From: Escherichia phage BF17
DNA length: 64,000 nt
Sequence record: MW822008.1
Direction: 5' to 3' (one strand)
The notes under the pieces were generated by a model. The model ran no database searches. It saw nothing but the letters and a program-made list of their open reading frames with translations, and was not told where the DNA came from. Numbering within the stretch: the stretch's first letter is position 1; every line of letters starts with the position of its first letter. A program made the position numbers and the translations under genes. Positions 3,760 through 55,700 of this stretch are shown here, in pieces.

Positions 3760-6423
3760 ATGGCAGGAGATCTACTCTCACCTGGCGTTTCCATTTCAGT
3801 AACTGATGAAAGTATGAGTACTGCTGCTGCTCCTGGCACAGTACCACTATTTGTAATCGCTACTGCTGAAGACAAACTTGTTCCTGGTAGCAGTGCAATC
3901 GCTGCGGGAACCACTAAAGCAAACGCTGGTAAACTACAGCTACTAACATCACAGAAAAGCTCACTAGATACATTTGGCTCACCAATTTTCCAAATGAACA
4001 ATGGTTCAGTTGTTCAAGGTGACGAACTAAACGAATATGGTCTACATGCTGTATATTCTTATCTAGGCATCACCAACCGTGCATATGTTATTCGTGCTGA
4101 TATCGATTTAGCTCAACTATCACCAAGTGCAACTGCACCAACTGGTCCAGTACCAAATGGTACTCTATGGTTTGATGCTGCTCAATCACAAATTGAAGCT
4201 TATGTTGCTAAGAAAGACAGCCCAAGCAGCTTCTATGACTGGCAATTGAAGCCTGTTACCATCGTAAGTTCTGAAGAAGTTGACGATGTTAGCCTAGTTG
4301 GTCTAAACGTTGATGATCTAGTTCTACGTTATAAGCCAAGTAATGGTCAAATGCTTATGTACAAACGTGCAGCATCTGGTCTAGTACAGGTTGAAACTTA
4401 TCTATCACCAATCAACAAAGTTCCAGTTGGTTCAACTGTTGAACAAGGTAACGTATGGATTCGTGATGGTTATACTCAAAATGGTTCAAACTATTTTGGT
4501 ACTCGTTTTGTTCTAAAACGTTATGCATCTCTAACTCAAGTTTGGAATATCGTTCCAGCATATACTGGTAATTCTTTCCAAGAAGTTGAAGCTAAGAGTG
4601 GTGTACTAAACAACAGTTATATTGCTTGCCGTTTTGATGACGATAGTAAGAGTTTCTCTTTCTATATTCAAAGTGCAAAACTATCAGCAATTAGTGCTCC
4701 AGCAGTACCACTAGGTGAAACTGTTATTGAGCAAGCTGGTGAAGATAGTTATTTGACTTTCGCTTACCTAAACAAATCTGTTAAAGTACTTGCAGTACCA
4801 CAAGGTGGCGTAATTAATACTCAAACTATCATCGATAATCTAAATGTTAGTGCTGATCTTATCAATGATGGATTCAAATTCAAACGTGAATCTAATGGCG
4901 GTTTGGTAGTTACAAACACCAAAGGTTATAGCTTTAAAGTTACCCAAAGCGGTGATGATATTTTTGCAGCGAATGAACTAGCTAAACTAACTGTAGATAG
5001 TAACAACTATTCTCTAGTTAACGTTAATAACTTACGTGTTAGCTCTTCTGTTCCACGTAGTATTGCTAAAGACGGTACTATTTGGTATGATTTCGGTAAT
5101 TCCGATAACCTAACTGTTACCATGTACATTGCAGATGTTGCAAATGACGAATGGGATCTAGTACAAGAAGATAACAAATATGTTCAAGTTGATGAACCTG
5201 CGGCAGACCGTCTAATTTGGGTACGCCCTCTATCTCAAGGAATTGATGGTTATGATTTCTATCGTAACGTTGATGGTGAGTGGGTTAAACTAGACAATAC
5301 TGACCAAAGTACTCTAAACGGTATGATTTTCGCTGACTTTAACTTCCCTGAACAAGTTGCTTCTGCTGCTCTTTATCAGAATGGTATGCTTGCAATTGAC
5401 CTCGGTAATACCGAAGGTGTTGTTAAGAAAATGGTTAATGGTCAATGGCAAGTTGTTAGTGGTGTTAGTCTTGATGGTGCAGGTCTATTCGGTCGTGCAG
5501 CACAACGCAAACTAATCGTTGAAGCACTAGCTGCTGTAATCGTCGGTAATGATGATATCCGTTCTGAATTCATCGACTTCAACCTAATCTGTGTTCCTGG
5601 TTATGTAGAAACTCTAGATGAATGTATTACCCTAAACACTGATCGTAAAGAAACAGCGTTCATTGTAACTGATGTACCTGCTCGTTTGAACCCAACCGGA
5701 AACGGTAGTGCAGTTCAAGAATGGGCTACTAACGCGAATAACGCACCAAGTAATGGTTCAGTAGGCCGTACTTCTGCATATGATTATGCTGCTCAGTACA
5801 TGGGCTGGTGTCTAAGTACTAACGTTGATGGTGAAGAAGTAGCGGTTCCAGGCAGTACTGTTGCAATGCGTACCTATGCGTACAGTGATAGTGTTAGTTT
5901 TGTATGGTATCCACCTGCTGGTACTACTCGTGGTGTTGTAACCAATGCTGCAAGTACTGGTTTCATTAACAGTGAAGGTGAATATCAACCAGTAGTATAC
6001 AACCAAGGTCAACGTGACGTGATGTATACCAACAACATTAACCCAATTGCAATGCGTCCTAACCGTGGCTTGCTAGTATATGGTGATAAAACACTATCTG
6101 CTAACCAAACCTCTGCACTAAGCCGTGTTAACGTTGCTCGTTTGGTTGTTTACATTCGTCGTCAACTAGAAATCATCTCTGAACCATTCCTATTCCGTTT
6201 GAATACTCCAAGTACTCGTCAGGAATTCAGTGGTGTAGTGAATAGCTTCCTAGCTGAAATCGTTCAACAACAAGGTCTATATAACTTCGCAGTTGTTTGT
6301 GACGAAAGTAACAACACTTCTGAACGTATTGACCGTAATGAACTTTGGATGGATATTGCAATCCAACCTACTAAGTCTATCAACTTCATTTACGTACCTA
6401 TTCGTATTGAAAAGACTCAATAA
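3760..6423 (+). CDS. tail sheath protein
   Basis: 887 aa; N-terminus MAGDLLSPGVSISVTDES resembles T4 gp18 start LLSPGIELKE; followed by putative tube genes; GGAGG RBS. Confidence 0.75.
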   Translation: MAGDLLSPGVSISVTDESMSTAAAPGTVPLFVIATAEDKLVPGSSAIAAGTTKANAGKLQLLTSQKSSLDTFGSPIFQMNNGSVVQGDELNEYGLHAVYSYLGITNRAYVIRADIDLAQLSPSATAPTGPVPNGTLWFDAAQSQIEAYVAKKDSPSSFYDWQLKPVTIVSSEEVDDVSLVGLNVDDLVLRYKPSNGQMLMYKRAASGLVQVETYLSPINKVPVGSTVEQGNVWIRDGYTQNGSNYFGTRFVLKRYASLTQVWNIVPAYTGNSFQEVEAKSGVLNNSYIACRFDDDSKSFSFYIQSAKLSAISAPAVPLGETVIEQAGEDSYLTFAYLNKSVKVLAVPQGGVINTQTIIDNLNVSADLINDGFKFKRESNGGLVVTNTKGYSFKVTQSGDDIFAANELAKLTVDSNNYSLVNVNNLRVSSSVPRSIAKDGTIWYDFGNSDNLTVTMYIADVANDEWDLVQEDNKYVQVDEPAADRLIWVRPLSQGIDGYDFYRNVDGEWVKLDNTDQSTLNGMIFADFNFPEQVASAALYQNGMLAIDLGNTEGVVKKMVNGQWQVVSGVSLDGAGLFGRAAQRKLIVEALAAVIVGNDDIRSEFIDFNLICVPGYVETLDECITLNTDRKETAFIVTDVPARLNPTGNGSAVQEWATNANNAPSNGSVGRTSAYDYAAQYMGWCLSTNVDGEEVAVPGSTVAMRTYAYSDSVSFVWYPPAGTTRGVVTNAASTGFINSEGEYQPVVYNQGQRDVMYTNNINPIAMRPNRGLLVYGDKTLSANQTSALSRVNVARLVVYIRRQLEIISEPFLFRLNTPSTRQEFSGVVNSFLAEIVQQQGLYNFAVVCDESNNTSERIDRNELWMDIAIQPTKSINFIYVPIRIEKTQ

Positions 6424-9469: not shown

Positions 9470-10486
<1,017 letters not shown>

Positions 10487-10513
10487 CTTAAACGACCTTA
10501 TGGAGTTATTAAA

Positions 10514-11047
10514 ATGAATAGATTACAACAAATCCTAACGGATAAAAAACCAGTTTTTGAATACCGAGTCAAGTTTGCAGTTGAACCTACCAATGAGCAA
10601 CTAAGTAAAGTATCACAACGCCTAATGGATCGTTATGATGCATTTGATATTGGTGCACTAAAGAAAACTATTTTCATGGAAAGACCACTAGATTTTTATG
10701 AATTAGATTGTGGTGAAATTTGGATGTTTGATTTCAAATGCCACCGTGGTGTTCAATCAAACGTACTAATGTATGAAATTGGCAACCTACTAAGTATGAC
10801 TGAAGCTCTAATCCGTGTACGTAGTAAAGATGAACCACGTCAACAAGAAATGACCGAACTCGAAGATGATATTGACTTTGACGATTACGAACCAGTAATT
10901 GGTGTTGATTTTGGCAAACCAGAAGACAGCCATGATTTAGCTGGTGAAGAACGTGCTGTAACCGCAGTTAAAGATGCGATTGAAGCAGTTAAAAGTGACA
11001 ATAAATACTCTCAATATATGAGTGCTGGTTTTGGTAAAAAGGATTGA
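10514..11047 (+). CDS. hypothetical protein
   Basis: 177-aa ORF with GGAG RBS. Confidence 0.45.
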   Translation: MNRLQQILTDKKPVFEYRVKFAVEPTNEQLSKVSQRLMDRYDAFDIGALKKTIFMERPLDFYELDCGEIWMFDFKCHRGVQSNVLMYEIGNLLSMTEALIRVRSKDEPRQQEMTELEDDIDFDDYEPVIGVDFGKPEDSHDLAGEERAVTAVKDAIEAVKSDNKYSQYMSAGFGKKD

Positions 11048-11050
11048 GAC

Positions 11051-11596
11051 ATGAGTATACTTAATGAAATGTTAGACTATAATGATGAAGAGCTAAATGA
11101 AGCTCGTCCATATAGTCGTTCACAAAGTGCAGTAGATAGTGCAAAAGGAAAAGTAAAAGGCTTTTTCGGTAGTGGTCAAGTAGAACAAGGTGCACAAGAA
11201 GTTGGTGCAGAAGCAAACCGTCTTTGGGCTGAATTTAAACGCTATGTTGGTCGCAAATACGGTAAAGCACAGCCATCAGTACCATATGCTGATGTTGCAC
11301 AATTCTTCAAAGGAAATAACCTTGATATAAAACACCTGGGAAATAACAGTCGTCGTACTTTTACTCCTAAAGATGTTGGTTCTGCTCTATTGGCAGCAGC
11401 ACGTGACTTGATGAATGATTATCGTGATGATGATAAAGGTGAAGAACAACAACGTCCTGCACCACAAGCTCAACCTGACAATGCTCCACAACCAGCACCA
11501 CAGGAACAGCCAAAAGCACAAGGTTCTAGTATCCCTGATGCTCTACAAAAATTAAGTCCAGAGCAGCGTGAACAACTTTTGCGTATGCTTTCTTAA
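11051..11596 (+). CDS. hypothetical protein with P/Q/A-rich low-complexity tail
   Basis: 181-aa ORF; AAGGA RBS; PQAQPDNAPQPAPQEQP segment. Confidence 0.45.
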   Translation: MSILNEMLDYNDEELNEARPYSRSQSAVDSAKGKVKGFFGSGQVEQGAQEVGAEANRLWAEFKRYVGRKYGKAQPSVPYADVAQFFKGNNLDIKHLGNNSRRTFTPKDVGSALLAAARDLMNDYRDDDKGEEQQRPAPQAQPDNAPQPAPQEQPKAQGSSIPDALQKLSPEQREQLLRMLS

Positions 11597-11609
11597 GGAG
11601 AATCAACAC

Positions 11610-13121
11610 ATGGATAATTTTTTCAGTACTGAAACTACCACAGTACCTAATGGATATGTATATACTTCTCACACTGGTGGCAAATATGTATTTCTAGAAG
11701 GTTTCTGGTTTAACGACAATAATATGTTAATGGTAGACCCTAAAAAATACCCATCCATGTACGCAAGTGCTCGACAACAGATTGTTGAGCACAATCTATC
11801 TTCTAGTGAATATAAAATTGGTAAAAAATATATTCTTGAAGGTAAAGAGTGTACATTTCTTGGTGAAAATCGTTTCAATTCTAAAGATGGAATTCTACTA
11901 ACTGAAAGTGAAATTATCACTGAACTAATGGCAGATGACCACCGTGTATATAATGTTTCAAAAGAAACTCTACAAAAAGAATGGAACTCCCTAAAATTCT
12001 ATATCCTTCCACCATATGCTGATGATATTTCTATTCCAGCAGGTATGGAAGTTAGTGGATTTAAATTCATCCCTAAAAATCACCGTTTTGTTGATGCAAA
12101 ATCTGGACGTCCAGTTGACCCAGCAATGACACGTAAACTTTCCGATGAAGGTATGCGTATTGCTCGCCAATTAGCACCAAAAAACAAACTAATTCCAATT
12201 AAATCTACATTAGTACAAGGTAATACTCGTTCAGAATGGAATGGTAAAGAATTTTGTGATAATGATGGTAATGTTGTAATTCCAGAACAAAATGCACATG
12301 TAATCTTTAATGCATATCAGCAATTTGTTAAGGCTAACCCTGGTGATTTTCCTTCACTAACTGGTGATCATGAATCAGGTGAACAACGTTTTGGTTCAGG
12401 TGAAAAGCCAGAACAACCTAAACAACCAGTAAAACAGCCAGTATTCGCAACAAAAGAATCCATTAATGAAGCAGATGAAGAGATTGAAGAAACTGAATCT
12501 GTTGTGGTTCCACATGGTTACCGCATTACTTCAAATAAAGGTAAAACATACATTAAACAAAAAAATGCATGGTTTGATGTAGAAACTAAAAAACAACTAA
12601 ATTCTAGTGCTGCAAAAAGTGTTGAACGTGCTGCTCAACGTGATATAATTCGCCATAATAGTTCTGGTGCAATGAAAATCGGAACTAAAGTAAAATCTAA
12701 GAAAGGCACAGAGTATTCTTATATCGGTGGTAACCGCTTTATCAGTGCAGAAGGTAAATTGATTCCAAAATCAACTGCTGATGACATTCTTGCTCGTTAT
12801 GATGCAGAACGTGCTGATAAGAAAGAAGAAGAACCTGAAGAGAAAGTAGATGCTGAAGTATCAAGTACTGATGTAGTTGAGCCAAAAGCTGAACCTACTA
12901 AAGAACCAGAACCTGTTGCAGAGCCAGAACCTGAAGTTCCTGCTGCTGGGGATGAAGTTCAATCATTAGCTTCACGAATTAAAGAATCACCTTACGCTAA
13001 GAAAATTACAGTACTCTTAACGCGTGGTGATGAGGTTTCTCTAATTGCTGCTGACATTTTACTATCTGGTAAAAAGGATGAAACAGTGCAAATTTTAAAA
13101 TCATTAAATAAGAATGATTGA
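11610..13121 (+). CDS. hypothetical protein with internal tandem duplication
   Basis: ATG at 11610 with AAGGAG RBS (track starts 11568); two copies of a ~110-aa module (VPNGYVYTSHTGGKY.. / VPHGYRITSNKGKTY..; YKIGKKY..GENRF / MKIGTKV..GGNRF). Confidence 0.5.
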   Translation: MDNFFSTETTTVPNGYVYTSHTGGKYVFLEGFWFNDNNMLMVDPKKYPSMYASARQQIVEHNLSSSEYKIGKKYILEGKECTFLGENRFNSKDGILLTESEIITELMADDHRVYNVSKETLQKEWNSLKFYILPPYADDISIPAGMEVSGFKFIPKNHRFVDAKSGRPVDPAMTRKLSDEGMRIARQLAPKNKLIPIKSTLVQGNTRSEWNGKEFCDNDGNVVIPEQNAHVIFNAYQQFVKANPGDFPSLTGDHESGEQRFGSGEKPEQPKQPVKQPVFATKESINEADEEIEETESVVVPHGYRITSNKGKTYIKQKNAWFDVETKKQLNSSAAKSVERAAQRDIIRHNSSGAMKIGTKVKSKKGTEYSYIGGNRFISAEGKLIPKSTADDILARYDAERADKKEEEPEEKVDAEVSSTDVVEPKAEPTKEPEPVAEPEPEVPAAGDEVQSLASRIKESPYAKKITVLLTRGDEVSLIAADILLSGKKDETVQILKSLNKND

Positions 13122-13143
13122 TAACTAAAAGGATTTATTTAAA

Positions 13144-14133
13144 ATGGCTAAAAAAATTAATGAAGCACAAGTTAAAATCGATATCGCAGGTCTAGAATCT
13201 GAAGATCTAGAAACACTATCTCGTATGCTTGCATTAGCTGGTCAAGCAGAGCGTCAAGCTTCTCCTGTTGCTGCTCCAGTTCCTTCTATGGGGTCTATGA
13301 CCCCTTCTCTACCACCAATCGCTCCACTCGACATGGATTCCATTGGTGCTGGTGCTGAAGAAGAAGTTGGTGGTACAATGGATGGTGCGATTGATGCACC
13401 AGTTGAAGACCCATTGGAAGTAGCTGCTGACTCACTATCTGCTGAAGCTGGTGATTTTGGTGGTGATTCTGAAGAAGTAAGTATGGATGCAGAGTTCGAA
13501 GAGCCTGGTGTTGCAGATGAAGAAGAGTTTTCTTTAGATCTTTCCGGTCAACCTCAACTAGAATCAGTTGAAGAAGAGGAAGAAGAAGAAATCATCGAAG
13601 AAGAATTCGATTTCAGTCGTATGCTATCTCTAGCTGGGCTTCAAGACGAACCAGAAGATGAATATTCAGTAGAAGGTAACCCAGATACTGAAGTTAAAGT
13701 TGAAGAAAACACTTTCCTACCAGACCTAACCATCTCTGAAGATGAAGAACAAGGTGACAGTACTGATTTTGGACCTTACAACACTGAAGCTGATGCCGTT
13801 CGTGACGGTCAAGCTAAAACTAATGGTGTAGAAGGTGACCACTTTGTTGTTATTACCAAGGGTAACAAGTTCTACTGGAGACGTGTCGTTGATGAAGATG
13901 TTGACAATCGTCCTGAACCAGAGTACTATGACAATGACGGTAACGAGAACCGTGTTCACAAATTTGAACCTAAGTTTCCAGGTACTGCTCTAGGTGACAA
14001 CCCACTCAATGTTAATGAGAGTGATGAGTCCGTGGAAGGTAACGAAGAACTAGAAGATGAAAGCGATGAAGAAGTCGAAGACATTTTCGAAAGTCTCCAG
14101 AAGAAATATCAACAATTTCTAGGGGACAAATAA
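13144..14133 (+). CDS. highly acidic protein (D/E-rich)
   Basis: 329 aa with long E/D runs (EEEEEEEIIEEEFDF); AAAGGA RBS. Confidence 0.5.
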   Translation: MAKKINEAQVKIDIAGLESEDLETLSRMLALAGQAERQASPVAAPVPSMGSMTPSLPPIAPLDMDSIGAGAEEEVGGTMDGAIDAPVEDPLEVAADSLSAEAGDFGGDSEEVSMDAEFEEPGVADEEEFSLDLSGQPQLESVEEEEEEEIIEEEFDFSRMLSLAGLQDEPEDEYSVEGNPDTEVKVEENTFLPDLTISEDEEQGDSTDFGPYNTEADAVRDGQAKTNGVEGDHFVVITKGNKFYWRRVVDEDVDNRPEPEYYDNDGNENRVHKFEPKFPGTALGDNPLNVNESDESVEGNEELEDESDEEVEDIFESLQKKYQQFLGDK

Positions 14134-14134
14134 G

Positions 14135-14527
14135 ATGGGATATAATTATCGTGAATTGGTTGAAGCATTAGATGAAATCACTTCTAGTGAAGAATCTACT
14201 GAAGAAGAAAGTTTTGCAGTTGAGACTCCTTCTGATGCTGTTGCCACCGATTTACTTAAAGATATCACCGAATGCCTTATCCACATTGTGGATAAGGTTA
14301 AATCAGGTGAAGATCAAAAAGAAATCGTAGAAAAGCTTCAAAAAGCGTGTGACATTTTATCGGATGTTCGATATAATGATGAAAGTACTGAAGAAGTTGA
14401 TGAATCCACTGATTGCTGCTTCGGAACCAAAGATATGGGTCCGAAAATTGGTAAAGATGGTGTCCAAGACTATAAAGTTAAAGATGCTCCTTCATATGCA
14501 GCAAGACAGGGTTTCGTGGGGATGTAA
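14135..14527 (+). CDS. acidic hypothetical protein
   Basis: 130-aa ORF, E/D-rich, GGGGA RBS, tightly packed after previous gene. Confidence 0.45.
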   Translation: MGYNYRELVEALDEITSSEESTEEESFAVETPSDAVATDLLKDITECLIHIVDKVKSGEDQKEIVEKLQKACDILSDVRYNDESTEEVDESTDCCFGTKDMGPKIGKDGVQDYKVKDAPSYAARQGFVGM

Positions 14528-14530
14528 TTT

Positions 14531-14908
14531 ATGATTCCTGAACCACACAACAGTACTGAATTTCAAAACGATGTACTTTTAAAAGTTAGAGAAGTACATG
14601 GATCAGACGCTGAATTAACAGACCGTATGCTTCTGATGTCAATTTTTGAAAATTTCAGAACTGGCGGTGGTTTAAGACTTAGCAAGTTTGGATATACAAT
14701 TTGTAAAGAAAACATTCTTTACGAATTTACAAAAATCCCCTTGCAAAGAGAGTTCAAAAGTTCTATAATCTTTACATCGCTTGATAGGATATGTACTTCA
14801 CCCTACTATGTAGAAGGGCAGTACATATACCTCTCGGACGCAATGATAGTTACAGAGTTAACATTGTGTGGTGATGATTTTAGAATGTTATTTTCGATGC
14901 ACATGTAG
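14531..14908 (+). CDS. hypothetical protein
   Basis: 125-aa ORF with GGGGA RBS. Confidence 0.4.
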   Translation: MIPEPHNSTEFQNDVLLKVREVHGSDAELTDRMLLMSIFENFRTGGGLRLSKFGYTICKENILYEFTKIPLQREFKSSIIFTSLDRICTSPYYVEGQYIYLSDAMIVTELTLCGDDFRMLFSMHM

Positions 14909-14933
14909 CTTCGAAAATAAAGAAAAAAAGATG

Positions 14934-14961
14934 TTGACAACGCCGAATGATGTGTTATAAT
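14934..14961 (+). promoter_or_regulatory. sigma70-type promoter P1 (TTGACA-N16-TGnTATAAT)
   Basis: TTGACA 14934-14939, TATAAT 14956-14961 with TG extended -10. Confidence 0.7.
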
Positions 14962-15025
14962 GACCACCACGAAGCAAGTTTTCAAAATCACAAGATGTGA
15001 GATTGAAAAAGAAATAAAAAAGTTG

Positions 15026-15053
15026 TTGACAAGCCTGAACGATGTGATATAAT
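15026..15053 (+). promoter_or_regulatory. sigma70-type promoter P2, tandem duplicate of P1
   Basis: TTGACA 15026-15031, TATAAT 15048-15053; ~40-bp block GTTGACAA...GATGTG.TATAATGACCAC repeated 92 bp apart. Confidence 0.7.
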
Positions 15054-15115
15054 GACCACATCAAGACGGCAAAGAGAAATGCCTTTTTAAATACATGGAT
15101 GATTCATGAAGTAAC

Positions 15116-15158
15116 AAAGGAACTGATAAGTTAAAAATTCTTTTAACACAGTTCCTTT
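15116..15158 (+). promoter_or_regulatory. long stem-loop in 5' leader of the AAA+ gene
   Basis: AAAGGAACTG ... CAGTTCCTTT 10-bp inverted repeat with nested GTTAAAA/TTTTAAC stem. Confidence 0.45.
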
Positions 15159-15184
15159 ACTTTTGCCCACGGATTGGCTATAAT
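15156..15184 (+). promoter_or_regulatory. possible third promoter (TTTACT-N17-TATAAT)
   Basis: TATAAT 15179-15184 with weak -35 at 15156-15161. Confidence 0.35.
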
Positions 15185-15224
15185 AGAAACCTAAACGATT
15201 TTATCCAACAAAAGGAAAATATAC

Positions 15225-16553
15225 ATGTCTACTCAAAACAACGATATCCTGAACGTAAAACTGACTCCTAAGAAAGCTAAAGAAGCAATGGCACTGGCTG
15301 ACATGATTCAAGATAGCCTGATGATTTGGGGTAGCCCTGGTATCGGTAAATCTGCTATCGCACGTCAATACGCTGATGAGAACTACCCACTGCGTAAAGA
15401 TAACGTGGCAAAAATTGAGTTCATGAAACAACAAATCGAAGCTGATACTGAAAATGCTGATCAACTTCGCCGTGAACTGGCAGCGTTTGAAGCCAAACTA
15501 ATCGACCAAGACACTAACTTTATCGATTTCCGTTTGTCTCAGATTGAACCAAGTGACCTTCGCGGTATTCCAGTTCCAGAGAAAGTGTTCCTTGATATGG
15601 ATGGTAAGCAACTGATTGAATCTGAACTGGCTAGTGCACAAGATTACATCGCTGAAACAGCAGTTGTGTGGGCAGCACCTAAAGTACTGAAACTGTCTCC
15701 AGATTGGAAAGGTGTTATTCTGTTTGACGAAATCAACTCTGCAATGCCGATTGTACAGGCAGCGTCTTATCAGCTAATCCTCGACCGTTGTGTTGGTGAG
15801 ATGAAGCTACCTAAGACTGCACTGATTCTCGCAGCAGGTAACCGTGAAACTGATGGCGGTGTAACGTTCTCTCTAGCTACACCACTGCGTGACCGTATGA
15901 CCCACATCGAAATGATTCCTTATCATCAAGATTGGATTAACGATTATGCGATTGGTAAGCGTTTGAACCCAGCAACTGTAGCGTTCATCAACAACACTGG
16001 TGCTAAACACTTCAACACCCTTAGCCCACAAGATCCTTCTCACTGTGGTGGTACTTCTCCACGTTCATGGGAAGCAGTAGCACGCTACGAAGATCTGAAG
16101 AAAGTTAAGAACATTGATAAAGAAGTGTTCCGTGCGATGATTGCAGGTCGTGTTGGTGAAGGCGTAGCAACTGAATACATCGAGTATGTTGATAACGTAG
16201 CTAAACTACCAGATACCATGTCCATCCTACAGGGTGAGATTAAAGAGATTGATGCTTCGCTTGATATTTCCGCGAACTACTTCATCACTCTGAATCTGGT
16301 TTACAAAATTATCGACCTCTACAATGAGAAGCAAGAACAACGTCTACCAGTGGAAGATTGGGGTAAGCTGTGCAACAACTTCATCACCTTCCTAGACCAT
16401 AACTTCTCTGCAACTCAAGCAGAACTGGCAGTACTGGCGATTCGTACCATCACGCTTCATAAAGTAGCGATTACGATTAAAGATGTACCAGCGTTTAAAG
16501 ACTTCGTTATGAAGTACTCTGACCTAGTACGTAAAGCACGCTCTCTTGGTTAA
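15225..16553 (+). CDS. MoxR-type AAA+ ATPase (AAA_5 / CbbQ-NorQ-CobS-like)
   Basis: Walker A GSPGIGKS, Walker B VILFDEINSA, AAGN and TPLRDRM motifs; single AAA module; AAGGA RBS. Confidence 0.75.
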   Translation: MSTQNNDILNVKLTPKKAKEAMALADMIQDSLMIWGSPGIGKSAIARQYADENYPLRKDNVAKIEFMKQQIEADTENADQLRRELAAFEAKLIDQDTNFIDFRLSQIEPSDLRGIPVPEKVFLDMDGKQLIESELASAQDYIAETAVVWAAPKVLKLSPDWKGVILFDEINSAMPIVQAASYQLILDRCVGEMKLPKTALILAAGNRETDGGVTFSLATPLRDRMTHIEMIPYHQDWINDYAIGKRLNPATVAFINNTGAKHFNTLSPQDPSHCGGTSPRSWEAVARYEDLKKVKNIDKEVFRAMIAGRVGEGVATEYIEYVDNVAKLPDTMSILQGEIKEIDASLDISANYFITLNLVYKIIDLYNEKQEQRLPVEDWGKLCNNFITFLDHNFSATQAELAVLAIRTITLHKVAITIKDVPAFKDFVMKYSDLVRKARSLG

Positions 16554-16628: not shown

Positions 16629-18038
16629 ATGTCAGATAAACGTTTCAGTGATGTTACTCCGGCTCTCCAGAAAGAATGTCAAGATCGTCTGATCTTAGCT
16701 CGCACATCTTTAATGCTAACATTCCCATTCTTTGGTGTACTGGCTTCTCGTCTGCGTCCAGTTGCAAACAATACATGGTGTCGTACTTTGGCAGTAGATG
16801 GTAAGCATTTATTCTACAACGTAGAATTCATCATGGGTATTCAGGACCAATCCAAAAAGACCGCATACGAAGAAGCAATTCGTGAGAAACATCCTGAAGT
16901 AACTGAAGAACAACTTAAAGAAATGACAGAAGGTTTGACTGATGAAAACCTGATTGCAGTTATCTGTCATGAGATTCTTCACTGTGCATATGACCACTTC
17001 TTGCGTCGTGGTATGCGTGACCCGCAGCGTTATAACCGTGCTGCTGACTATGCAATTAACCAGATTCTTGTTCGTGATAAAATTGGTAAAATCCAAAGCC
17101 AATGGCTGTACGATAAAAAGTACGATGGCATGACTGCTGAAGAGATTTATAACATTCTCGAAGAAGAAGATAAGCAGGATCAAGACGGAGAAGGTGAAGG
17201 TAACCCACAGGCTGGTAGTGGTGAGGGCGAAGGTAAATCACGTGGTACTTTTGGCGATATCAAAGATGGTAAAGGCAAAGGTACAACAATTGACCAGCAT
17301 GACGTTCCACAAGAAGGTCAAGAGGGTGGTTCAAGTGAGAAACAAAAACGTGATTATATGGATGATTTCAAAACAGCAATGATGAATGCTGCTCGTGCAG
17401 GTGGTACTCCTGCTGAAATCGCACGTATGATTAACAACTTCAAAGAACCAAAGATCGACTGGCGTTCTAAACTTCACCGCACGCTACGTAGCTGGTTGAA
17501 GTCTGACGCAACTTATCAAAGTCCTAATCGTCGTTCATGGGGTGCTGGTTTTGGTAGTACTGGTTCATTCTACGGGAATCCAATCTTCCCTGGCATGAAA
17601 CCTGATGATGATATTGATATTGCAATTGCACTAGATGCATCCGGTTCTATCTCTGAAGATATGCTCCGTGATTTCATCAGTGAAGTACTGGGTATCACTA
17701 AGCAGTTTAAACAATTTAAAATCCGTATCATGACGTTCGATACTGAAGTTTATACTGTAAAAGATTACAAAACTGGTGAAGAGAGTAAGATTCTTGAATA
17801 TCCAGTGAAAGGTGGTGGTGGTACTGACTTTGAAGCAGTATGGGTTCATATGAAGCATGACAACTATAAGCCAAAACAGCTTATTATGTTTACTGATGGT
17901 GAGCCGTGGCAGTCATGGGGCGATCCTGATTACTGTAAGACACTGTTTGTTATCCACAGTAATCCTAACAAACAAGCACCATTTGGTGAAACTGTACACT
18001 ACGAATATGAAGCTGACAAAAAGCGTCAACGTAGCTAA
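16629..18038 (+). CDS. vWA-domain protein with N-terminal HExxH metallopeptidase-like domain (DUF2201-like), partner of the AAA+ ATPase
   Basis: HEILH motif; MIDAS residues DASGS ... GGGGTDFE ... FTDGEP; GAGGA RBS. Confidence 0.75.
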   Translation: MSDKRFSDVTPALQKECQDRLILARTSLMLTFPFFGVLASRLRPVANNTWCRTLAVDGKHLFYNVEFIMGIQDQSKKTAYEEAIREKHPEVTEEQLKEMTEGLTDENLIAVICHEILHCAYDHFLRRGMRDPQRYNRAADYAINQILVRDKIGKIQSQWLYDKKYDGMTAEEIYNILEEEDKQDQDGEGEGNPQAGSGEGEGKSRGTFGDIKDGKGKGTTIDQHDVPQEGQEGGSSEKQKRDYMDDFKTAMMNAARAGGTPAEIARMINNFKEPKIDWRSKLHRTLRSWLKSDATYQSPNRRSWGAGFGSTGSFYGNPIFPGMKPDDDIDIAIALDASGSISEDMLRDFISEVLGITKQFKQFKIRIMTFDTEVYTVKDYKTGEESKILEYPVKGGGGTDFEAVWVHMKHDNYKPKQLIMFTDGEPWQSWGDPDYCKTLFVIHSNPNKQAPFGETVHYEYEADKKRQRS

Positions 18039-46713: not shown

Positions 46714-49700
46714 TTATTTAACTTCTAATAGATTTTTAATGTCATTACCACTTATTTGCAAACTATCGGAGTAAACAGATAGTTCGATTGGATAACTGTT
46801 AACACTATAACGTTTTAGTAAATTAACTTTACCTAAGTTCAAGCCATTAAATGAATATGTCACATTCTCTTTAAAGTCGTGTTCTGCACTATACATTACC
46901 CCACGGAGTAAGTTATTTGCAAAACGTACTTCAACTTTTTCAAAACCAAGAGAAATAATATCATTCATACTTGCACCAGCACCAGATAGAACATTATTAG
47001 TAACACTATATGGACTAACTGAATCTGGTTGTGAAACATAAGTAGCATTTTCTTCACTGATAGCAGTAATGTTAGTTACTGTTCCACCAACTACACCAAT
47101 ATATGTATCACTAACTAGTGGATATGCATATTCCCATACCCCGTCAGCATTCAGTACTGGTTGAATAATACCAACATCATACTCGAACACGTTAATTTCC
47201 ACACTATCAGTCATTTTGGTTCTCACTAACTCACTAAGAACACCTGCACCAGTAATTGGTAAGTTATATCCGTTATCAATGGTAACACCATCAACTTCAA
47301 ATATCTCGTTAGACACTACCCAAACATCAACGTCATCTGGTGTAATTCCATCATTATAAGAACCACCGTATAGTGTTGTGTCGTAGAATACTTCATAGTT
47401 CATTGCGTCGATAGCATAATTTCTATTTGTTTCATACAACTTAACACCATCAACCAAGAATTCTGGATCAGCAAAGGTTCTAATACGAACGATGTTCAAT
47501 GCTAGAGGTATTGCTGGTTCATTCTGTTGTTGTTTAGTGATGTTATCATAACGAAGCACAACTCCAGTACTATCTAGTAGTTCTACAGTTCCGTTCGCAG
47601 TGTTTCTTACTGTGTACAAGGTTGGTGTGGTGTCAGTTTTGATTTTTGATACACTCAAGATGGTTTCCCATGCATTGTTTTGGTATCTCACATAATCTTC
47701 ACCATCAGTTGTGAATATCATAACCTTATCACCATCAGATAGGGTATTGTCAATTACTTCAGCTTCTGTATCACTAACAATTGATTTAATTTTATAGAAG
47801 TATTTTTCATCATACTTACTGTATGATTTACTAATATCATTTTCAATCTTAGCGTAAGAAGGAATACTAACAATTGCTTCTGTTGTTTTATAAGGGTTGA
47901 TAATAACCATACCTTCAGTTTTATATCTACTATTGTCTCTCAATTGAACTAGTGAAACACTATTGAATCCATAACCATCAACTGTGAAGCGAATCTGACC
48001 AATCTTTCTTCCTGATGGGTTAATATCAGAAATGTCGATTATGTACGGATCTACTTCGTCACCTTCAACTTCCCATTTTAACTCGGAAGTTTGTGATTCA
48101 AGTGCTAGGTTATCAAATGCATTCATATCATCGTAGTACTTAGCATCGGTGATGCTATCTAGGATGTGCTGATAATCACTGTACATTGGGTTATTTCTAT
48201 CAAGAGGTAAGTCATCAAGATTTATTTCTGCCAATTGAACTAGTTGACCGTCAGTTATGAATTTGTCTTCCATGAAATCATCAATGCTTTGGTCATCTGG
48301 GATACTCTCGTATACACCATTAACATTAACATAAACATATTTTCGTGGCATCATAGTAAATGCATGAATATCAATAGGCATTCTACTTAGTATTTCTTCA
48401 GCCTTTTCATAATGGTCGGTAGCATCTTTGTCATACAAACCACGCATACCGGACAATACATGAATTGCGTCATTGTAGAATCGTTGATTTCCATTTTCAT
48501 CTACATGGCGATATGAATAAACACCATATTCAACTTCAAGTATAATTCTAACTTCATCATCAGTTGCAGTAGTATTGTTTTCTTTAATTAAAGAAACATA
48601 CTTATTATACAACTCACTACTAACTTCAAAGTAACCAAAGTTATAATCAGTACTGGATGCATAACCAAACGGTAGTCTGGTACTTGGATTATCATCATAG
48701 GTTAACCCACTAAATCCACATCCAACCTCATCATGAATTACTTCATCATCTGCACCTGTGTACAATTTCAAACGGTTAGAGAGTGTGTTATACTGAACAT
48801 AATGATTTACGTCATTAAACATTTCATTTTGTGTTGATTCTTTATATACACGATTCAACGTTTCTGTGAATTCTGCGGTTGCTACCAAATCATCTGCATG
48901 GTCTGCATACCATTGGTTAACACCGTAAGCAATCCCTAGAGTTACGTTCAATTCTGGGTAATACAATTGCATCTGATAAGCAACCAATAGGTCGAAATCT
49001 TCATCACTGTATTCTGGGAATGTATATTTGTAACGTTGTAATTCAAAATTACTAACAACATCTTGTGCATTAGATTGATATTTCTTATTCACTTCTTCCA
49101 ATACATCAACACTTGCCAAATTATCATTTGGTTTACATTGAGTGTTGTCGTAGTGCATGATAACATCAATTTCTTGGAAACGGCGATTAGGTGTTACGAA
49201 ATCACTTGGCAATTCACCAACTTGCTCCCAACGTTGAGTTACCTCATTGAATTGAGCATATTCATAATCCCAAATGTCTTTTTCCGTTTTAACCCAAGTC
49301 CCATCTGCAAATATATAGCCATTAGGATCTAAATCATTACACAAACCTTTAATTAAATCATCATCTGAAGTTTTCTGTTCAATCTGGGAACGAATCTTAG
49401 TTCTATATGGTTTAACTTCTTCAAAGTACTCAACGATTTGATTAATCAAGTTGTCGTTGGAATAGTTCTGTACTAATGATTGTTCTAAACCTACAATATA
49501 AATGTAAGATGTTTTGAATACCCAATCAACAACGCTTTGTTCTACGTGAACATACTTAACCATATCAAACACAATTTCACTCTGATGTAAGTCGAATGAG
49601 TTCTTCAATAAAGCTAGTGCTTTACGAACGTTAATCTCACGATTACTCAACGAACCATTAGCATCACGAACTGTATAGTCAGCGTATAACATATCATTCA

Positions 49701-52700
49701 ATTCAACTGTACTATTTTCACGACCAATTGCTTTCCAGTAAACTGAATCACGTGATTGTGCTTTAATGTACAATGTCCAGATGCCATCAACATCTGTAAT
49801 TCTGATAATGTCACCAACTTGATAGTTCTTAGTGTTTGCATCTTCTAGGCTGGATTCTTGTGTATATGCAGTATTTTTATCGTATCCAATATCATACCAA
49901 TCTGCTAGTGACCAGTACTGGGTCATGTCCAATGAAGTTCCTAGTGCTTCAACATAGTCTGATTGTTTAATCATTTTCTGTTGACCTTCACCACGGTTTT
50001 CCAATGTAATGGTAACCACACTACCAGCACTTGATGGACTATTCATTAGATGAATATAACCATTAGCATCAATATGCACAAAATATACAGAGCTAGTTGA
50101 TAGTGGGGTAGGTAATACACCACTAGTACTTACTAGTACTGCGTCGTTTTCTTTGAACTTGTCACTTTCAGGTGCAATGACTAATTCACTATTGTAAGTT
50201 AGCACACGATATGATACTTCATTCGGGTTAACTTCAGTAGTTTTAACATTAAACACTTCGTCCATTAGAACAGTGTTAGTTGTTATATTCTGTGAGCGAT
50301 AATAGTTATTTGCACTTTCTACAAAGTTTCTACGAGCTTCAATTACATCTTGGAACCAAGTCTTATTAGAACCTAAACCGTTTGGTACTAAAGGATATAG
50401 TAAATCAATAACAGTTCCTGATTCAGTAGTTTCTTGACCAATCATAGAATTCCACATAGAAGTCCAGATTGATGGATTGAAGTTATAGCTATCACCTTCT
50501 TTACATAATTGATACTGGTCATGTTTAATAACTTCAGTATTATCCATGTAATAAGAAACAGTTAAAATACTTGTGTCATCGTTGACTTCAAATTGCATAT
50601 TACTTAGAATGAACGAGCTTTCATTGATTGGTGCAAACCAAGGAATGTTAAGCTGTGCTGGTTCTTTAATAATACGAGCAATATCAGTACAAGATTTAGT
50701 TCTGGAATGTAATGGTGGTACATAAATTGTATCACGAACCCAGAAATAGTATTTTGTAACATAAGTATCAGTTGTGCTATCATATTCTAAGAACGTACTA
50801 TAATTATCTTCCAATGCGGTTCCGCTTGGTAGGTACATAGTGTTGTTTTTATTTTTGTTAGCAACGTCTTTACAGTATTTGTCCCAGTTATATGGTTCAA
50901 CTGGTGAACATACCCATTCAAGAACATCAACAGTACTGTGCGGTAACAATCTACCCCAGTTATAACGTTTATATTCATTTGTTGCATCAACATCCACATT
51001 ACCGTCAGCATCATAGATTGCACGAGTGTAATCTAAGTAGAAAGCAGTGCTGGTGTTCCACCAAACCTGACCAACTTTATCAGCACCCCATGCTTGAATC
51101 AATTCACCATTGCTGTTGTATTGTGCTGGGTCAACTGGAGATGTGTAGGTAACGTTCTGCATCGCTGCACCAGGAATAACACCGTTGATTGGGTCAAACA
51201 CGTTTAGGTACAACGCAGTAATGTTAGTACGTTCATCATATGTAGTTGGACGGTCAAACAAAGTACTTTGTGGAGCTTTAAAACTATATTTTCTGTCAAT
51301 GTATTCCTGACGCATCTCTTCAGTACTGAATCGTGAAACATAACGATACAAGCGTGGGCGAGTATCAGGATCAGTGAAGTCAATAGTGATTGAAGTGTCA
51401 AACGGAACTACCATAACTCTAGGGTCATTACCCGCAGTATAATATTGACTTTCTATAGTCAATGTATCTGGCATAAAGTTAGTTTCATCAACAAAGTAAT
51501 AATAATCACCATCATTTAGTGGGATATCATCACTTAGAGTTACTTTACAGAATTGTTCTGCATATACATCGGTATTTTCAATTGGAACGATAGAGAGCAT
51601 CTCAACTTCAGTGTCTACTAGTTCGAAAATATTCCACAAATCATTACCATCTTTAAACATCCATACAGAATCTGGGATTTCACCACTGTTATTCATATAA
51701 TTGATACGATCATTATATGCAGTACTGAAATCTTTAGTAACGTATGAAATTTCATCTAGTGTTACAGGACCAATGTCTGGAAGTTGGATATTCTCACTTC
51801 TTCCACTACGCATTGGGAATGAAAACTTACCATTTGGACGAGTAATCCAGCGTGAGTCAACCCCTTGTTCACCGTAATAAACAATACCATTACCAGTACC
51901 ATTTGATGTAGCATTAACATCAAACGAAACCATCTGTGGTTGTTGTTTAAATTGGTCATTGATTAGTTTAAATTGTAGATTTTTCTTACCATTGATATTA
52001 CCATAAGTACCAATCTTAAATGCCCATTCCTGAAGTGCTTTATATTCATCAGTGTCGTAAGATTTAGAAACGCGTAGTACTTTTTCCATTACTTGGTTAG
52101 TACCTTTGTCATGAATGAATCCTTTATAGAAATCAACACGACTAACATCACTACTAATCATACGTTGTAGATAATCACGAGTTTGATAGCCAATCAAGTG
52201 ATTTGATAACTCTTGAAGCTGAACATCACTCACAGGAGTTTCACTATTATAATATAATTCAAAATCAGTTACTAATTTTTCAAATGATGGTAAAGTTCCT
52301 GCTTCTAGGATAATGAAACCAGGTGCTTGTAGGCGACCAGTCCATGACCCAGTAATGTAACCATACATTTTAATCAATTCTTGAATAGCACCATAAGTTG
52401 GTTGGTAAATGTAATCACCAAAGATAGTTTTATCATCAAAAACAACTGCGTGTTCATATGAACTTAGGCTCAAACGAATCAACGCCATACGTTTTTGTGA
52501 TTCAGATGTAGTTCTCACTGTGAATACGTTACCGATACGCGAAGTTTCGATTTCATATTGACGGATGCCTTGGTTTTCATCATCGAGTAGTGACCAAACA
52601 CCACCACTATTCTGTGTAACAGATTGAACTGAACCAAAATCCGCACCAAATTTAGCATTAGCTGCACTTGGAGTACAGGAGATGAACTCACCAGTACTTA

Positions 52701-55700
52701 AATTATTCTGACTCCAAATAACAAAGTCTTTAGCAATAGTTGTCCAGTCTTGTTGAGTACCACTATCATTTACATCTTCAAAAATCCAGCCATGTTCTTT
52801 TAGATATTCACCATATCCACAAATGAAAGTATAAACTTCTTGGTATGTATTGAATATTTTACCATATTCTAATGTACCTTCAGATTTCCATTCATTGTAA
52901 TGAACAACAGTTCTGTCTTCCAATTTAAGAGTTACTTTTCTTCCATTTTTAACTGGAATTTTATATTTAAATTTAGCACCAACTAAATCATAACCATCAA
53001 TTTGATATGCACTACCATTCCAAGTAATTTTTACTGCACTCATTTGCTCATCGCGAATGTTATTGGAACGAACTAGACCGATAGTTTGGTTTTCTTGTGA
53101 AATCAAACCGAAAGATTTAGCAGTGAATGTCAATTGGTCTGCTTTAGTAAAGCCACCAATTTTGTGAGCGACATTGACATAAGAAGAACGAACAACGTCA
53201 CCGTATTTGGTGGTAATGTTCTTATTCTGATACATCAAATAGTCACTAACAAACATTTGATAACCGATAGTACGGGTGTTTTTCTCACCATGTACTAATG
53301 TAGTACTGTCAAAGTTTAGACGCTTACGGGTTTCACCATAAAGGAACTGTGAACCATCAGTATAAACTGGTTTAAGGTTATCATTACGGGTATCCCAGTA
53401 ATAGTTTGCAAACTGTGCTGGTTTTGCTTTGTATAGAAGAAGCATTTGGTCATAAGCAAACATCGCAGTGTTCATGTAAGTGAATTCCATGTCACCCATG
53501 TCACCATAAGACCACGGTTCTGCACGATGATCTAAATTACCACTAACAAGACCTAAAACTTCAGGTGCAATATACTCAACTTCACAAATATCAATACCAG
53601 TACTGGTTTTCTCGCCAGTCTTAGTGATTTTAAATGGCTGTACACCGAAACGCTTGTATTTGTCATATTGACCACGGCGTTCACCTGACAAAATAGTACC
53701 AGTACTGCTATCACCGATAGTACCATCAATATCCCACAATCCACTTGGGACCAAATCACCATTTTCATTCATTACTAGTGCTTCATACACATAAACAACA
53801 TCACCCTCACGTTCACCAACTTGAACTGCGGTTGGTTCGTATTCTTGGTTCCACCAAGTAGGACGTTGAGAGAAGCCCATCATTTCCCACGGATGGGTTG
53901 CTGGACGATATGTGCCATATTGGTCAGTATAGATTGCACGCCATGAACCACGAGCAGGAATTTCAGTACGTTGACCATCAACAACATAATAACTACCAGT
54001 ATAGTTCCAAGTTCTCCAGTTATTTGCATCATAATCATGAGTACTGTTACTAATGCCATTGGTTGCTGTGAAGTTAATGTAACCACGTAGTAATAGAGTT
54101 TTCTTTTCTTCTGCACTATAATCAGTACCAGTGAAATATGGAGTTGGGAATAGGTCTTCACTGTTTAGTACTGGTTTATAATCAATATCCTTGAAAGTAA
54201 GATCAATACTATTAAAGATACGATTTTCCAATTCAAAAACTACGTCATCCATTTTATCAACACCATTGATAACACGGTATGCTTTTGAAATAATACCAGT
54301 ATGACTGATATTATAACAGCTAGATTTACTACCAGCAGTTAAGAATGTTGCTTTTTGTGGTGTATAAGCTTGCAAAATACCCAAGAACTGTGGAGTTGGT
54401 GGGACAAATGCACGAATAAACCCAGCAGTGCTTGCAACGTTGTCATAGTAGAATGGGAATGTACTATCACGTCCCATATTAATAGCTGTTAGAATCGCAT
54501 CTACGATGTTTGATGCACTATTACCAAGAAAAGCACTTGGGTCTTCTTCATACAAACGAAGCATTTGAGTGTTGAACTTGTTAATGAAGCGGAAGTATTC
54601 TGCTTGCATAAACATGATTGATTCAAACAAATCAATATCTTCATTAGCGGTATGTGCCATTAGTGGTAACATGGACGCTTCGTTTTGAATAATTTTAGTG
54701 CCTACACCATTATTAACCAAACCAGCAGCCAAACGTTCTTCGTAATTGTTAAAGTCATCAGCAGAACCAGATGTAATATTCTTTTGAATAATATCTTGGA
54801 AGTGCAGGGTGTAATCACCTTGGTTGATGTATTCAATGTTTGAATTATATGGGTTATTTTGTAGATTAATTGGAACTTCATATGCACCCAACTCTTTATT
54901 AGGAGTGATAGTGCTACTATAAGTTCTGATTTGTACAACAGAATCTTCATCCAAATCAACAGAGCTATCAATTGTAATACTTTGTACTTGATTATTAACT
55001 ACAGTTTTTGTGTATTCTTTTATTTCCACACCATCAACAACTAGTTCGATAATATCATCAGAATTATCTAGTACTTTTTGTGCCAATTCAAATGTATGAT
55101 TGTACTTAACGCTTTGTACCCCATCACCAACGATAACATGCCAATCAAGATATGTTTCACGTTCTGCTTTGTAATATTGATAAGTTCTGTCAACTTCAAT
55201 TACATAAGCATACATTCCTTCAACTGGGTCTTTGAAACTTTCCATGTCATAAACAGTACTGAACACGCGGAACATTACTGTACGTTCAACCTGTGGAGTT
55301 TGTTTAACATATTGTTTGGAGTATTCAGTACTACGAACCCAATCAGTTTCTAGGTTCATTGTATTACCTTCACCAATTACGTTATAGTAATATAGTCCAT
55401 CAATTTCAACTTCCACACCCAAATGCTCGTAAGTATAACGAGTTGATTGTAGGAAATTCTCATATGTGTAATAATTGTAATCACCTAGTTCAATATTATA
55501 ACCATAAACGCTATCAGTTGCATAATTATAGTTAATTTTAAAACCAAATAGTGAAGAACCAGTAAAAGTACTTGATGGATAGGTAGTAGTGTTGTTTAGT
55601 TTAACACCATTACGGTCATACAATTGGAATTGTGGAAATACGTTCACAGAAGTTTTAGACTGTGCTTGAATCCAATGAGAACCGTCCCAATACATGGAAC

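Follow-up and report, generated by a model that had tools for sequence, protein, structure and literature searches.

What do two consecutive genes for extremely acidic proteins do in a large tailed phage? We asked this of ORF A and ORF B, adjacent open reading frames (ORFs) in a stretch of Escherichia phage BF17 (sequence record MW822008.1) that we analyzed over its whole length of 64,000 nucleotides (nt; hereafter the window); the head gene cluster lies outside it. A model given only the letters (the sequence-only reading) had noted that ORFs of 329 and 130 amino acids (aa) at this locus are dominated by Asp and Glu and include a run of seven Glu, had offered DNA mimics or injected internal proteins as explanations, and had suggested pI and disorder calculations and structure prediction as checks. 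The observation itself held: the coordinates are exact, both ORFs lie on the + strand, and of 53 ORFs compared they have the highest acidity. As to function, we give a slightly better than even chance to A and B being acidic internal head proteins (prohead core or internal proteins), processed by a protease, of a RaK2/121Q-like jumbo myovirus. The two ORFs and the Glu run are:

13144–14133, + strand: ORF A, 329-aa hyper-acidic virion protein, PHROG 15988 (ORF with ribosome-binding site, homologues, mass spectrometry of orthologues in virions; PMC5259590, PMC7247149)
14135–14527, + strand: ORF B, 130-aa acidic virion protein, PHROG 14971 (ORF with ribosome-binding site, homologues, mass spectrometry of orthologues in virions; PMC3622015, PMC5259590)
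13570–13590, + strand: run of seven Glu, (GAA)7, A residues 143–149, in a linker of variable length that is always acidic (sequence, homologue alignment)

A plausible ribosome-binding site precedes each ORF. We ranked acidity over the window's 53 ORFs of 100 aa or more, in which Asp plus Glu averages 11.9% (standard deviation 5.0%), and A and B took ranks 1 and 2. The pI calculation gave 4.05 for A, which has 93 Asp and Glu (28.3%) against 20 Lys and Arg (6.1%) and a net charge of –73, and 4.21 for B, with 24.6% Asp and Glu and a net charge of –18.

Gene names were taken from the annotation of fEgEco12, 121Q, phAPEC6, RaK2 and CBB. Over the region 12500–15500, Escherichia phages Ecwhy_1, WPEC5, EC.P1 and fEgEco12 share 99% identity with the window, and 121Q, PBECO4 and phAPEC6 (genus Asteriusvirus) about 82%; the source of the window is a RaK2/121Q-like jumbo myovirus. 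Orthologues of A are 121Q gp560, phAPEC6 gp267c, RaK2 gp050 and CBB_213; those of B are 121Q gp561, RaK2 gp051 and CBB_214. Evidence that these proteins are in virions comes through the orthologues in CBB, RaK2 and phAPEC6. Mass spectrometry of purified CBB virions detected CBB_213 with five peptides and CBB_214 with one (PMC5259590), RaK2 gp051 was identified in virions by tandem mass spectrometry (PMC3622015), and phAPEC6 gp267c was found in virions with one peptide (PMC7247149). Few peptides are to be expected from A, because it has only 20 Lys and Arg and a stretch of about 160 residues in CBB_213 lacks a tryptic site. The PHROGs database labels both families 'virion structural protein', a label that traces to mass spectrometry on purified virions. 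That A and B are annotated virion proteins of unknown function was already known; what is new here is a specific, testable assignment to the protease-processed interior of the head, which we consider somewhat probable.

This assignment starts from the N termini. In T4, the gp21 protease cuts after L/I-x-E (PMC9026906), and 10-residue N-terminal capsid targeting sequences ending in L/I-x-E bring internal proteins into the prohead core (PMC9026906, PMC7697877). Head assembly in the phage group of the window follows the T4 manner: phAPEC6 gp227c matches Peptidase_S77 (PF03420, E = 9.9e-21) and is a gp21-type prohead protease, and the phAPEC6 capsid protein gp225c matches Gp23 (PF07068, E = 1.3e-89). 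Cutting the 121Q/phAPEC6 capsid protein after L-T-E43 yields a computed mass of 37.2 kDa, and the published mass of the mature 121Q capsid protein is 37 kDa (PMC5646251), so the L/I-x-E specificity appears to be shared with T4.

We tabulated the N termini of 61 annotated proteins from the closest relative of the window and the phAPEC6 head cluster, scoring any [L/I]-x-E that ends at or before residue 10. All five head-core genes had the signature (E7 in the capsid protein, E10 in the scaffold, E7 in the protease, E9 in the acidic gp228 and E7 in gp229). It also occurred in A (I-N-E7↓A, the arrow marking the predicted cut), in B (L-V-E10↓A) and in a 181-aa neighbor (L-N-E6), compared with four of the 53 remaining proteins, and in none of the sheath, tube, baseplate or fiber proteins in the table. 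The same signature is found in T4 gp67, gp68, gp21, gp22, gp24 and inh (sequences from the T4 RefSeq record). Of the 75 A homologues 74 keep the site, as do 17 of the 19 B homologues; what changes is the middle residue, not the Glu or the Ala or Ser after it, and the B family has the consensus R-x-L-M-E-S/A. Among A homologues the variants are I-N-E↓A and, in far relatives, L-T-E↓A and L-Y-E↓A; constraint thus falls on just the positions read by the protease.

One of the signature-bearing head-core proteins, phAPEC6 gp228c (outside the window; 4216–5064 of the piece examined), is itself acidic, with 282 aa, 31% Asp and Glu and the start MANLKLLQE↓A. Its gene lies between those for the prohead protease and the portal, a position matching T4 gp67/gp68, and five of its peptides were found in phAPEC6 virions. 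A shows no sequence homology to it.

Under the explanation that we favor, A and B would be transcribed together with tail-tube and head-completion genes, and their conserved N-terminal segments would bring them into the growing prohead core, like the 10-residue targeting sequences of T4. The gp21-type (Peptidase_S77) protease would then cut after [L/I]-x-Glu, in A at E7, about E169 and E199, and in B at E10. The acidic fragments would remain in the mature head, where they could contribute to the radiation-sensitive inner body observed in 121Q and phAPEC6 or to a pool of acidic polypeptides like that of gp67. The parts of A and B on which this scheme draws are:

13144–13164, + strand: A residues 1–7, MAKKINE↓A, predicted T4-like propeptide and prohead-protease site; N6, E7 and A8 invariant (homologue alignment)
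13198–13257, + strand: A residues 19–38, conserved helix with motif copy 1 (DLETLSRMLALAGQAE) (alignment, AlphaFold2 model; covering peptides in CBB virions)
13606–13650, + strand: A residues 155–169, motif copy 2 (FDFSRMLSLAGLQDE), with a conserved I-x-E↓S after it in most homologues (alignment, model)
13717–13740, + strand: A residues 192–199, LPDL(S/T)(L/I)xE↓D, predicted site releasing a C-terminal fragment; P193, D194 and L195 invariant
13762–13893, + strand: A residues 207–250, small beta-alpha-beta-beta domain (AlphaFold2 model, predicted local confidence (pLDDT) 88–96)
14074–14118, + strand: A residues 311–325, conserved C-terminal helix, E316 invariant (alignment, model)
14135–14164, + strand: B residues 1–10, MGYNYRELVE↓A, resembling a T4 capsid targeting sequence, L-x-E then Ala/Ser (family alignment)
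14234–14365, + strand: B residues 34–77, predicted helical hairpin (AlphaFold2 model)
14423–14524, + strand: B residues 97–130, conserved tail GT..M.P....G...Y......SYAARQGFVG, not acidic overall (family alignment)

Both genes are conserved well beyond Escherichia phages. A and B occur in the same order in every RaK2-like phage searched; phages with both infect Escherichia, Klebsiella, Salmonella, Erwinia and Serratia, and in Yersinia, Pectobacterium, Cronobacter and Xanthomonas phages and one Vibrio phage only A was detected. Distant metagenomic relatives keep the whole arrangement from sheath, tube and gp4 through A, B and the small ORF to the ATPase. Acidity is maintained in both families even where sequence diverges, with Asp and Glu making up 23–30% of the 75 A homologues (net charge –45 to –81) and 17–30% of the 19 B homologues. 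At about 30% identity A still keeps its architecture: a helix-containing N-terminal stretch of 36 residues, acidic linkers that vary in length, the SRML(A/S)LAG motif for a second time, the LPDL(S/T)(L/I)xE motif, a small folded domain, a GDNPL stretch and a C-terminal helix. SRML(A/S)LAG occurs twice in A and in no other long ORF of the window or of the phAPEC6 head cluster. Within the B family, conservation is highest in the C-terminal tail. An exhaustive profile search with B over 1.84 billion representatives returned only about 30 clusters, nearly all consisting of small B-family members, and gave no connection to any other family.

The disorder and structure checks were run with AlphaFold2. 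The model of A, built from 75 sequences, has a mean pLDDT of 60, with 127 residues below 50 and 236 below 70; it contains helices at 19–38, 157–163 and 311–325 and a confident beta-alpha-beta-beta fold at about 209–247. A is thus predicted to be mostly disordered, with one confident small domain. Some metagenomic homologues carry that domain (GPF.S...A..DA....G....F.V.....G.YW) three times in tandem, which marks it as an independent module. The model of B (mean pLDDT 62.5) has an N-terminal helix and the helical hairpin at 34–77, the rest being of low confidence.

The supplementary peptide report for CBB, which lists fully tryptic peptides per gel slice, contains hints that the A orthologue is cut. 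The two N-terminal peptides of CBB_213 (residues 12–27 and 28–38) gave six rows each, with slices 02, 05, 09 and 11 among the at least seven in which they occur; the remaining N-terminal rows fall in slices without a C-terminal peptide, since all C-terminal rows are accounted for. The three peptides from the C-terminal domain appeared only in slices 09, 11, 12 and 13, and in 12 and 13, the lowest slices, they appeared alone. Slice 13 otherwise contained products of ORFs of at most 24 kDa, which fits a C-terminal fragment of 13.8 kDa released after L-D-E189 of CBB_213, the counterpart of E199 in A. QINEASVR, which spans E7↓A8 in CBB_213, was never detected in the CBB report, though neighboring peptides were, and detection of MLALAGQAENK indicates that the non-consensus Q-A-E36 is not cut. 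The presence of N- and C-terminal peptides in different slices is only suggestive of cleavage. The single CBB_214 peptide was seen at high intensity in one slice.

Among characterized head proteins, T4 gp67 ('pip', of the prohead core) would be the closest functional analogue of A and B, although they are analogues at most. Like A and B, gp67 is strongly acidic (44% Asp and Glu, pI 4.05); it is processed by gp21 and is among the internal proteins of the mature head, which keeps its fragments (PMC7697877). With the rest of the T4 core set (gp22, gp68 and gp21), gp67 shares with A and B an [L/I]-x-E within the first 10 residues, and in both cases the phage combines a protease of gp21 type with a capsid protein of gp23 type and the genes are conserved core rather than accessory genes. 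Unlike gp67, A is four times longer and carries two SRML(A/S)LAG helix motifs and a small folded domain; and unlike the T4 core set, A and B are encoded outside the portal-protease-scaffold cluster, which holds the unrelated acidic phAPEC6 gp228c. IPI, IPII and IPIII, internal proteins of T4, also have a short N-terminal segment ending in L/I-x-E and are found in virions, and A and B may, like them, be ejected with the DNA; with its 10 residues, the N-terminal segment of B agrees exactly in length with the T4 targeting sequence. In contrast to A and B, which are very acidic and syntenic across genera, the T4 proteins are basic, DNA-binding and poorly conserved.

A second comparison is with the inner-body proteins of phiKZ, which are cut after Glu by a gp21-related protease. 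A phiKZ-like inner body was seen by bubblegram imaging in 121Q (PMC5646251) and in phAPEC6, where it is a rod of 91 x 18 nm along the portal axis (PMC7247149). A cryo-electron microscopy paper on the Klebsiella jumbo phage phiKp24 made no internal-protein assignments. We regard A, B and the unrelated acidic gp228c as reasonable candidates for inner-body components. A much bolder proposal, to which we attach little weight, is that the inner body of 121Q-type jumbo phages consists largely of processed, disordered polyanions, and not of basic proteins that bind DNA; these polyanions would form a DNA-repelling central spool, be ejected before the genome and also act as decoys for host DNA-binding defense or nucleoid proteins. 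Where the sequence-only reading spoke of injected internal proteins, it is partly supported: the internal part agrees with the presence of orthologues in virions and with the head-core type of N-terminal signature, and ejection is a role that we can only infer. The interest of the question lies in how a 350-kb genome is spooled and released in jumbo phages outside the phiKZ group. From the shared N-terminal signature, the gp21-type protease and the virion proteomics of orthologues, we nominate A, B, probably the 181-aa neighbor, and phAPEC6 gp228c as head-internal components. The N-terminal segments of A and B could also serve as packaging tags for cargo in very large capsids, as the T4 targeting sequence does.

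Several observations weigh against assigning A and B to the processed head interior. Their genes adjoin tail and neck genes and not the portal-protease-scaffold-capsid cluster. [L/I]-x-E is not enriched overall in A (5 sites versus 5.9 in shuffled sequences) and only mildly in B (4 versus 1.8); for a three-residue motif without overall enrichment, what the signature argument has to draw on is position and conservation only. The N-terminal motif of B is missing in two distant members of its family. The CBB gel is smeary, with 22-kDa proteins in slice 02 as in slice 13, and spectral counts for A are only 2–4 per slice, which keeps the fragment argument at the level of a suggestion; moreover, all published virion searches were fully tryptic, so new N termini are invisible in them. 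Profile comparison with hhalign gave a probability of 0.2 for B against T4 gp67 and 0.1 for A against gp68, which is no homology. B scored 18.6 bits against phiKZ_IP (PF12699), for which the cut-off is 27, and in its family 4 of 14 members matched at E < 0.1 (best E = 3.6e-4); a score below threshold in so few members is not membership, and we rejected the sub-threshold Pfam hits of B to phiKZ_IP, saposin and Nab2 in that sense. A matched no Pfam family, phiKZ_IP included. The authors of the phAPEC6 study found no phAPEC6 protein similar to phiKZ inner-body proteins, and their own inner-body candidates were RCC1-domain proteins rather than A or B (PMC7247149).

The alternative that survives best, though we consider it unlikely, is that A and B are transient prohead-core or scaffold proteins, involved for example in core nucleation or size determination like T4 gp67/gp68, which are then degraded and mostly expelled, leaving the mass spectrometry signals as leftovers. 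The N-terminal signature common to A, B and the scaffold and core genes would fit such a role, as would the several conserved internal [L/I/V/M]-x-E sites and the combination of disordered acidic linkers with short conserved motifs, which is common in scaffolding proteins; T4 core proteins, too, are cleaved, and their fragments for the most part exit the head. The low virion peptide counts (1–5) point the same way, but they are expected anyway from the composition of A and the long stretch of CBB_213 without a tryptic site. Furthermore, N- and C-terminal parts of CBB_213 are both present in virions, and the CBB_214 peptide reached high intensity in one slice. The small folded domain of A is conserved and, in some homologues, multiplied, which suggests a function beyond filling space.

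The DNA mimics raised by the sequence-only reading (anti-restriction proteins or inhibitors of nucleoid proteins) fare worse. We think it improbable that A, B or both are polyanionic decoys, packaged or made in the cell, that neutralize restriction enzymes, RecBCD or nucleoid proteins in the manner of Ocr, ArdA and Arn. What speaks for this is composition: the net negative charges of A (–73) and B (–18) are extreme and kept across families, A and B have the high Asp/Glu density of T7 Ocr, ArdA and T4 Arn, and B also resembles them in being small and helical, with an acidity near that of known mimics. The presence of orthologues in virions would, if the proteins are ejected, permit delivery before gene expression, and the T4 internal protein IPI* sets a precedent as a packaged anti-restriction protein. 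Known DNA mimics, however, are rigid scaffolds with patterned charge, and most of A is predicted to be disordered (236 residues with pLDDT under 70, of which 127 are under 50). Neither A nor B matched a solved structure in fold or sequence, DNA mimics included: Foldseek searches of the Protein Data Bank (PDB) with the AlphaFold2 models found nothing at E <= 0.001, a result limited for B by low model confidence, and a search of BFVD with the A model found orthologues only. The sequence-profile matches of A and B in the PDB were to designed helical bundles only, and we rejected them as a compositional effect. A and B also sit among closely spaced structural genes and not in an early region, with strong sigma-70 promoters downstream of them, and their products are virion-associated. 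Finally, phages of many host genera have A and B as conserved core genes in synteny, whereas the anti-restriction internal proteins of T4 are poorly conserved (PMC9026906).

Least probable of the three is that A and B are neck, tail or external components, in the head-tail joining region or in hair-like appendages: their neighbors are neck, sheath, tube and head-completion genes, collar and fiber densities in this phage group are without an assigned protein, and their placement inside the head is indirect, but the signature is present in all head-core proteins and in none of the sheath, tube, baseplate and fiber proteins examined, a largely disordered protein with a net charge of –73 is unlikely to form an ordered external structure, and neither protein matches deposited phage tail or neck structures.

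The gene neighborhood bears on how A and B are transcribed. Upstream of A are, in order, genes for the neck, the tail sheath, three tail-tube paralogues and a gp4-like head completion protein, followed by four further genes; downstream of B come a 125-aa ORF, a gap of 316 bp, a MoxR-type ATPase (15225–16553) and a DUF2201/VWA protein (16629–18038). Intergenic gaps are 1–30 bp throughout the block 9470–14908, from which we conclude that A and B are very probably co-transcribed with the structural genes. The sequence-only reading had placed the two ORFs just upstream of an early promoter cluster; such promoters do exist, but, lying downstream of A and B and pointing away from them, they are irrelevant to them. 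The features around the two genes are:

9929–10486, 10514–11047, 11051–11596 and 11610–13121, + strand: four genes of the block 5' of A; the first two acidic, three annotated as virion proteins in relatives
14531–14908, + strand: last small ORF of the block, 125 aa, synteny kept (ORF list, comparison with relatives)
14934–14961 and 15026–15053, + strand: two sigma-70 consensus promoters, perfect 12/12, with extended –10 TG (motif match)

Situated 3' of A, B and the 14531–14908 ORF, the promoter pair faces the MoxR-type ATPase and VWA genes and so does not drive A or B. The two promoters stand in tandem with similar flanks, and a weaker third site lies at 15156–15184. The T4-type late promoter TATAAATA is depleted, with one match in the window against 6.6 expected, indicating that T4-type late promoters are not used; we accordingly rejected such a promoter for the A/B block. 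TATAAATA is depleted although a phage sigma factor with a late-transcription annotation is encoded by this phage group. The phAPEC6 orthologue of the MoxR-type ATPase, gp265c, was reported in virions (6 peptides) despite apparently early promoters, and the thymidylate synthase orthologue gp259c was likewise reported in phAPEC6 virions.

Acidity is not confined to A and B. Ranks 3 and 4 in the window are held by the products of 9929–10486 (21.6% Asp and Glu) and 10514–11047 (20.3%), whose genes directly follow the head-completion gene; as these too belong to the A/B block, the whole block is acidic. Both proteins are without the N-terminal [L/I]-x-E signature. With 13 peptides and 60% coverage, CBB_210, the orthologue of the 10514–11047 product, is an abundant component of CBB virions. 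The 181-aa protein of 11051–11596 starts MSILNE↓M, with an L-x-E resembling the N-terminal ones of A and B, and has the C terminus ...REQLLRMLS; GenBank and PHROGs call it 'Hsp70 heat shock protein', but it has no Pfam match, and the name looks artefactual. In the 503-aa virion protein of 11610–13121 we noticed by eye an internal duplication, VPNGYVYTSHTGGKYVF...FWFN versus VVPHGYRITSNKGKTYI...AWFD, and a second duplicated pair, IGKKYILEGKECTFLGENRF versus IGTKVKSKKGTEYSYIGGNRF; a Pro/Glu-rich acidic stretch lies near residues 400–450.

Other names in this region are also doubtful. Two fEgEco12 names lack Pfam support, 'transcriptional regulator HdfR' for the 125-aa ORF and 'terminase small subunit' for the 185-aa product of 9929–10486. 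The protein of 16629–18038, with a DUF2201_N metallopeptidase domain and a VWA domain, is called 'HNH endonuclease' in several GenBank records, for which Pfam scans give no support. Elsewhere in the window, 46714–56715 on the – strand encodes an acidic ORF of 3333 aa (pI 4.5), the orthologue of the 382-kDa phAPEC6 virion protein gp245.

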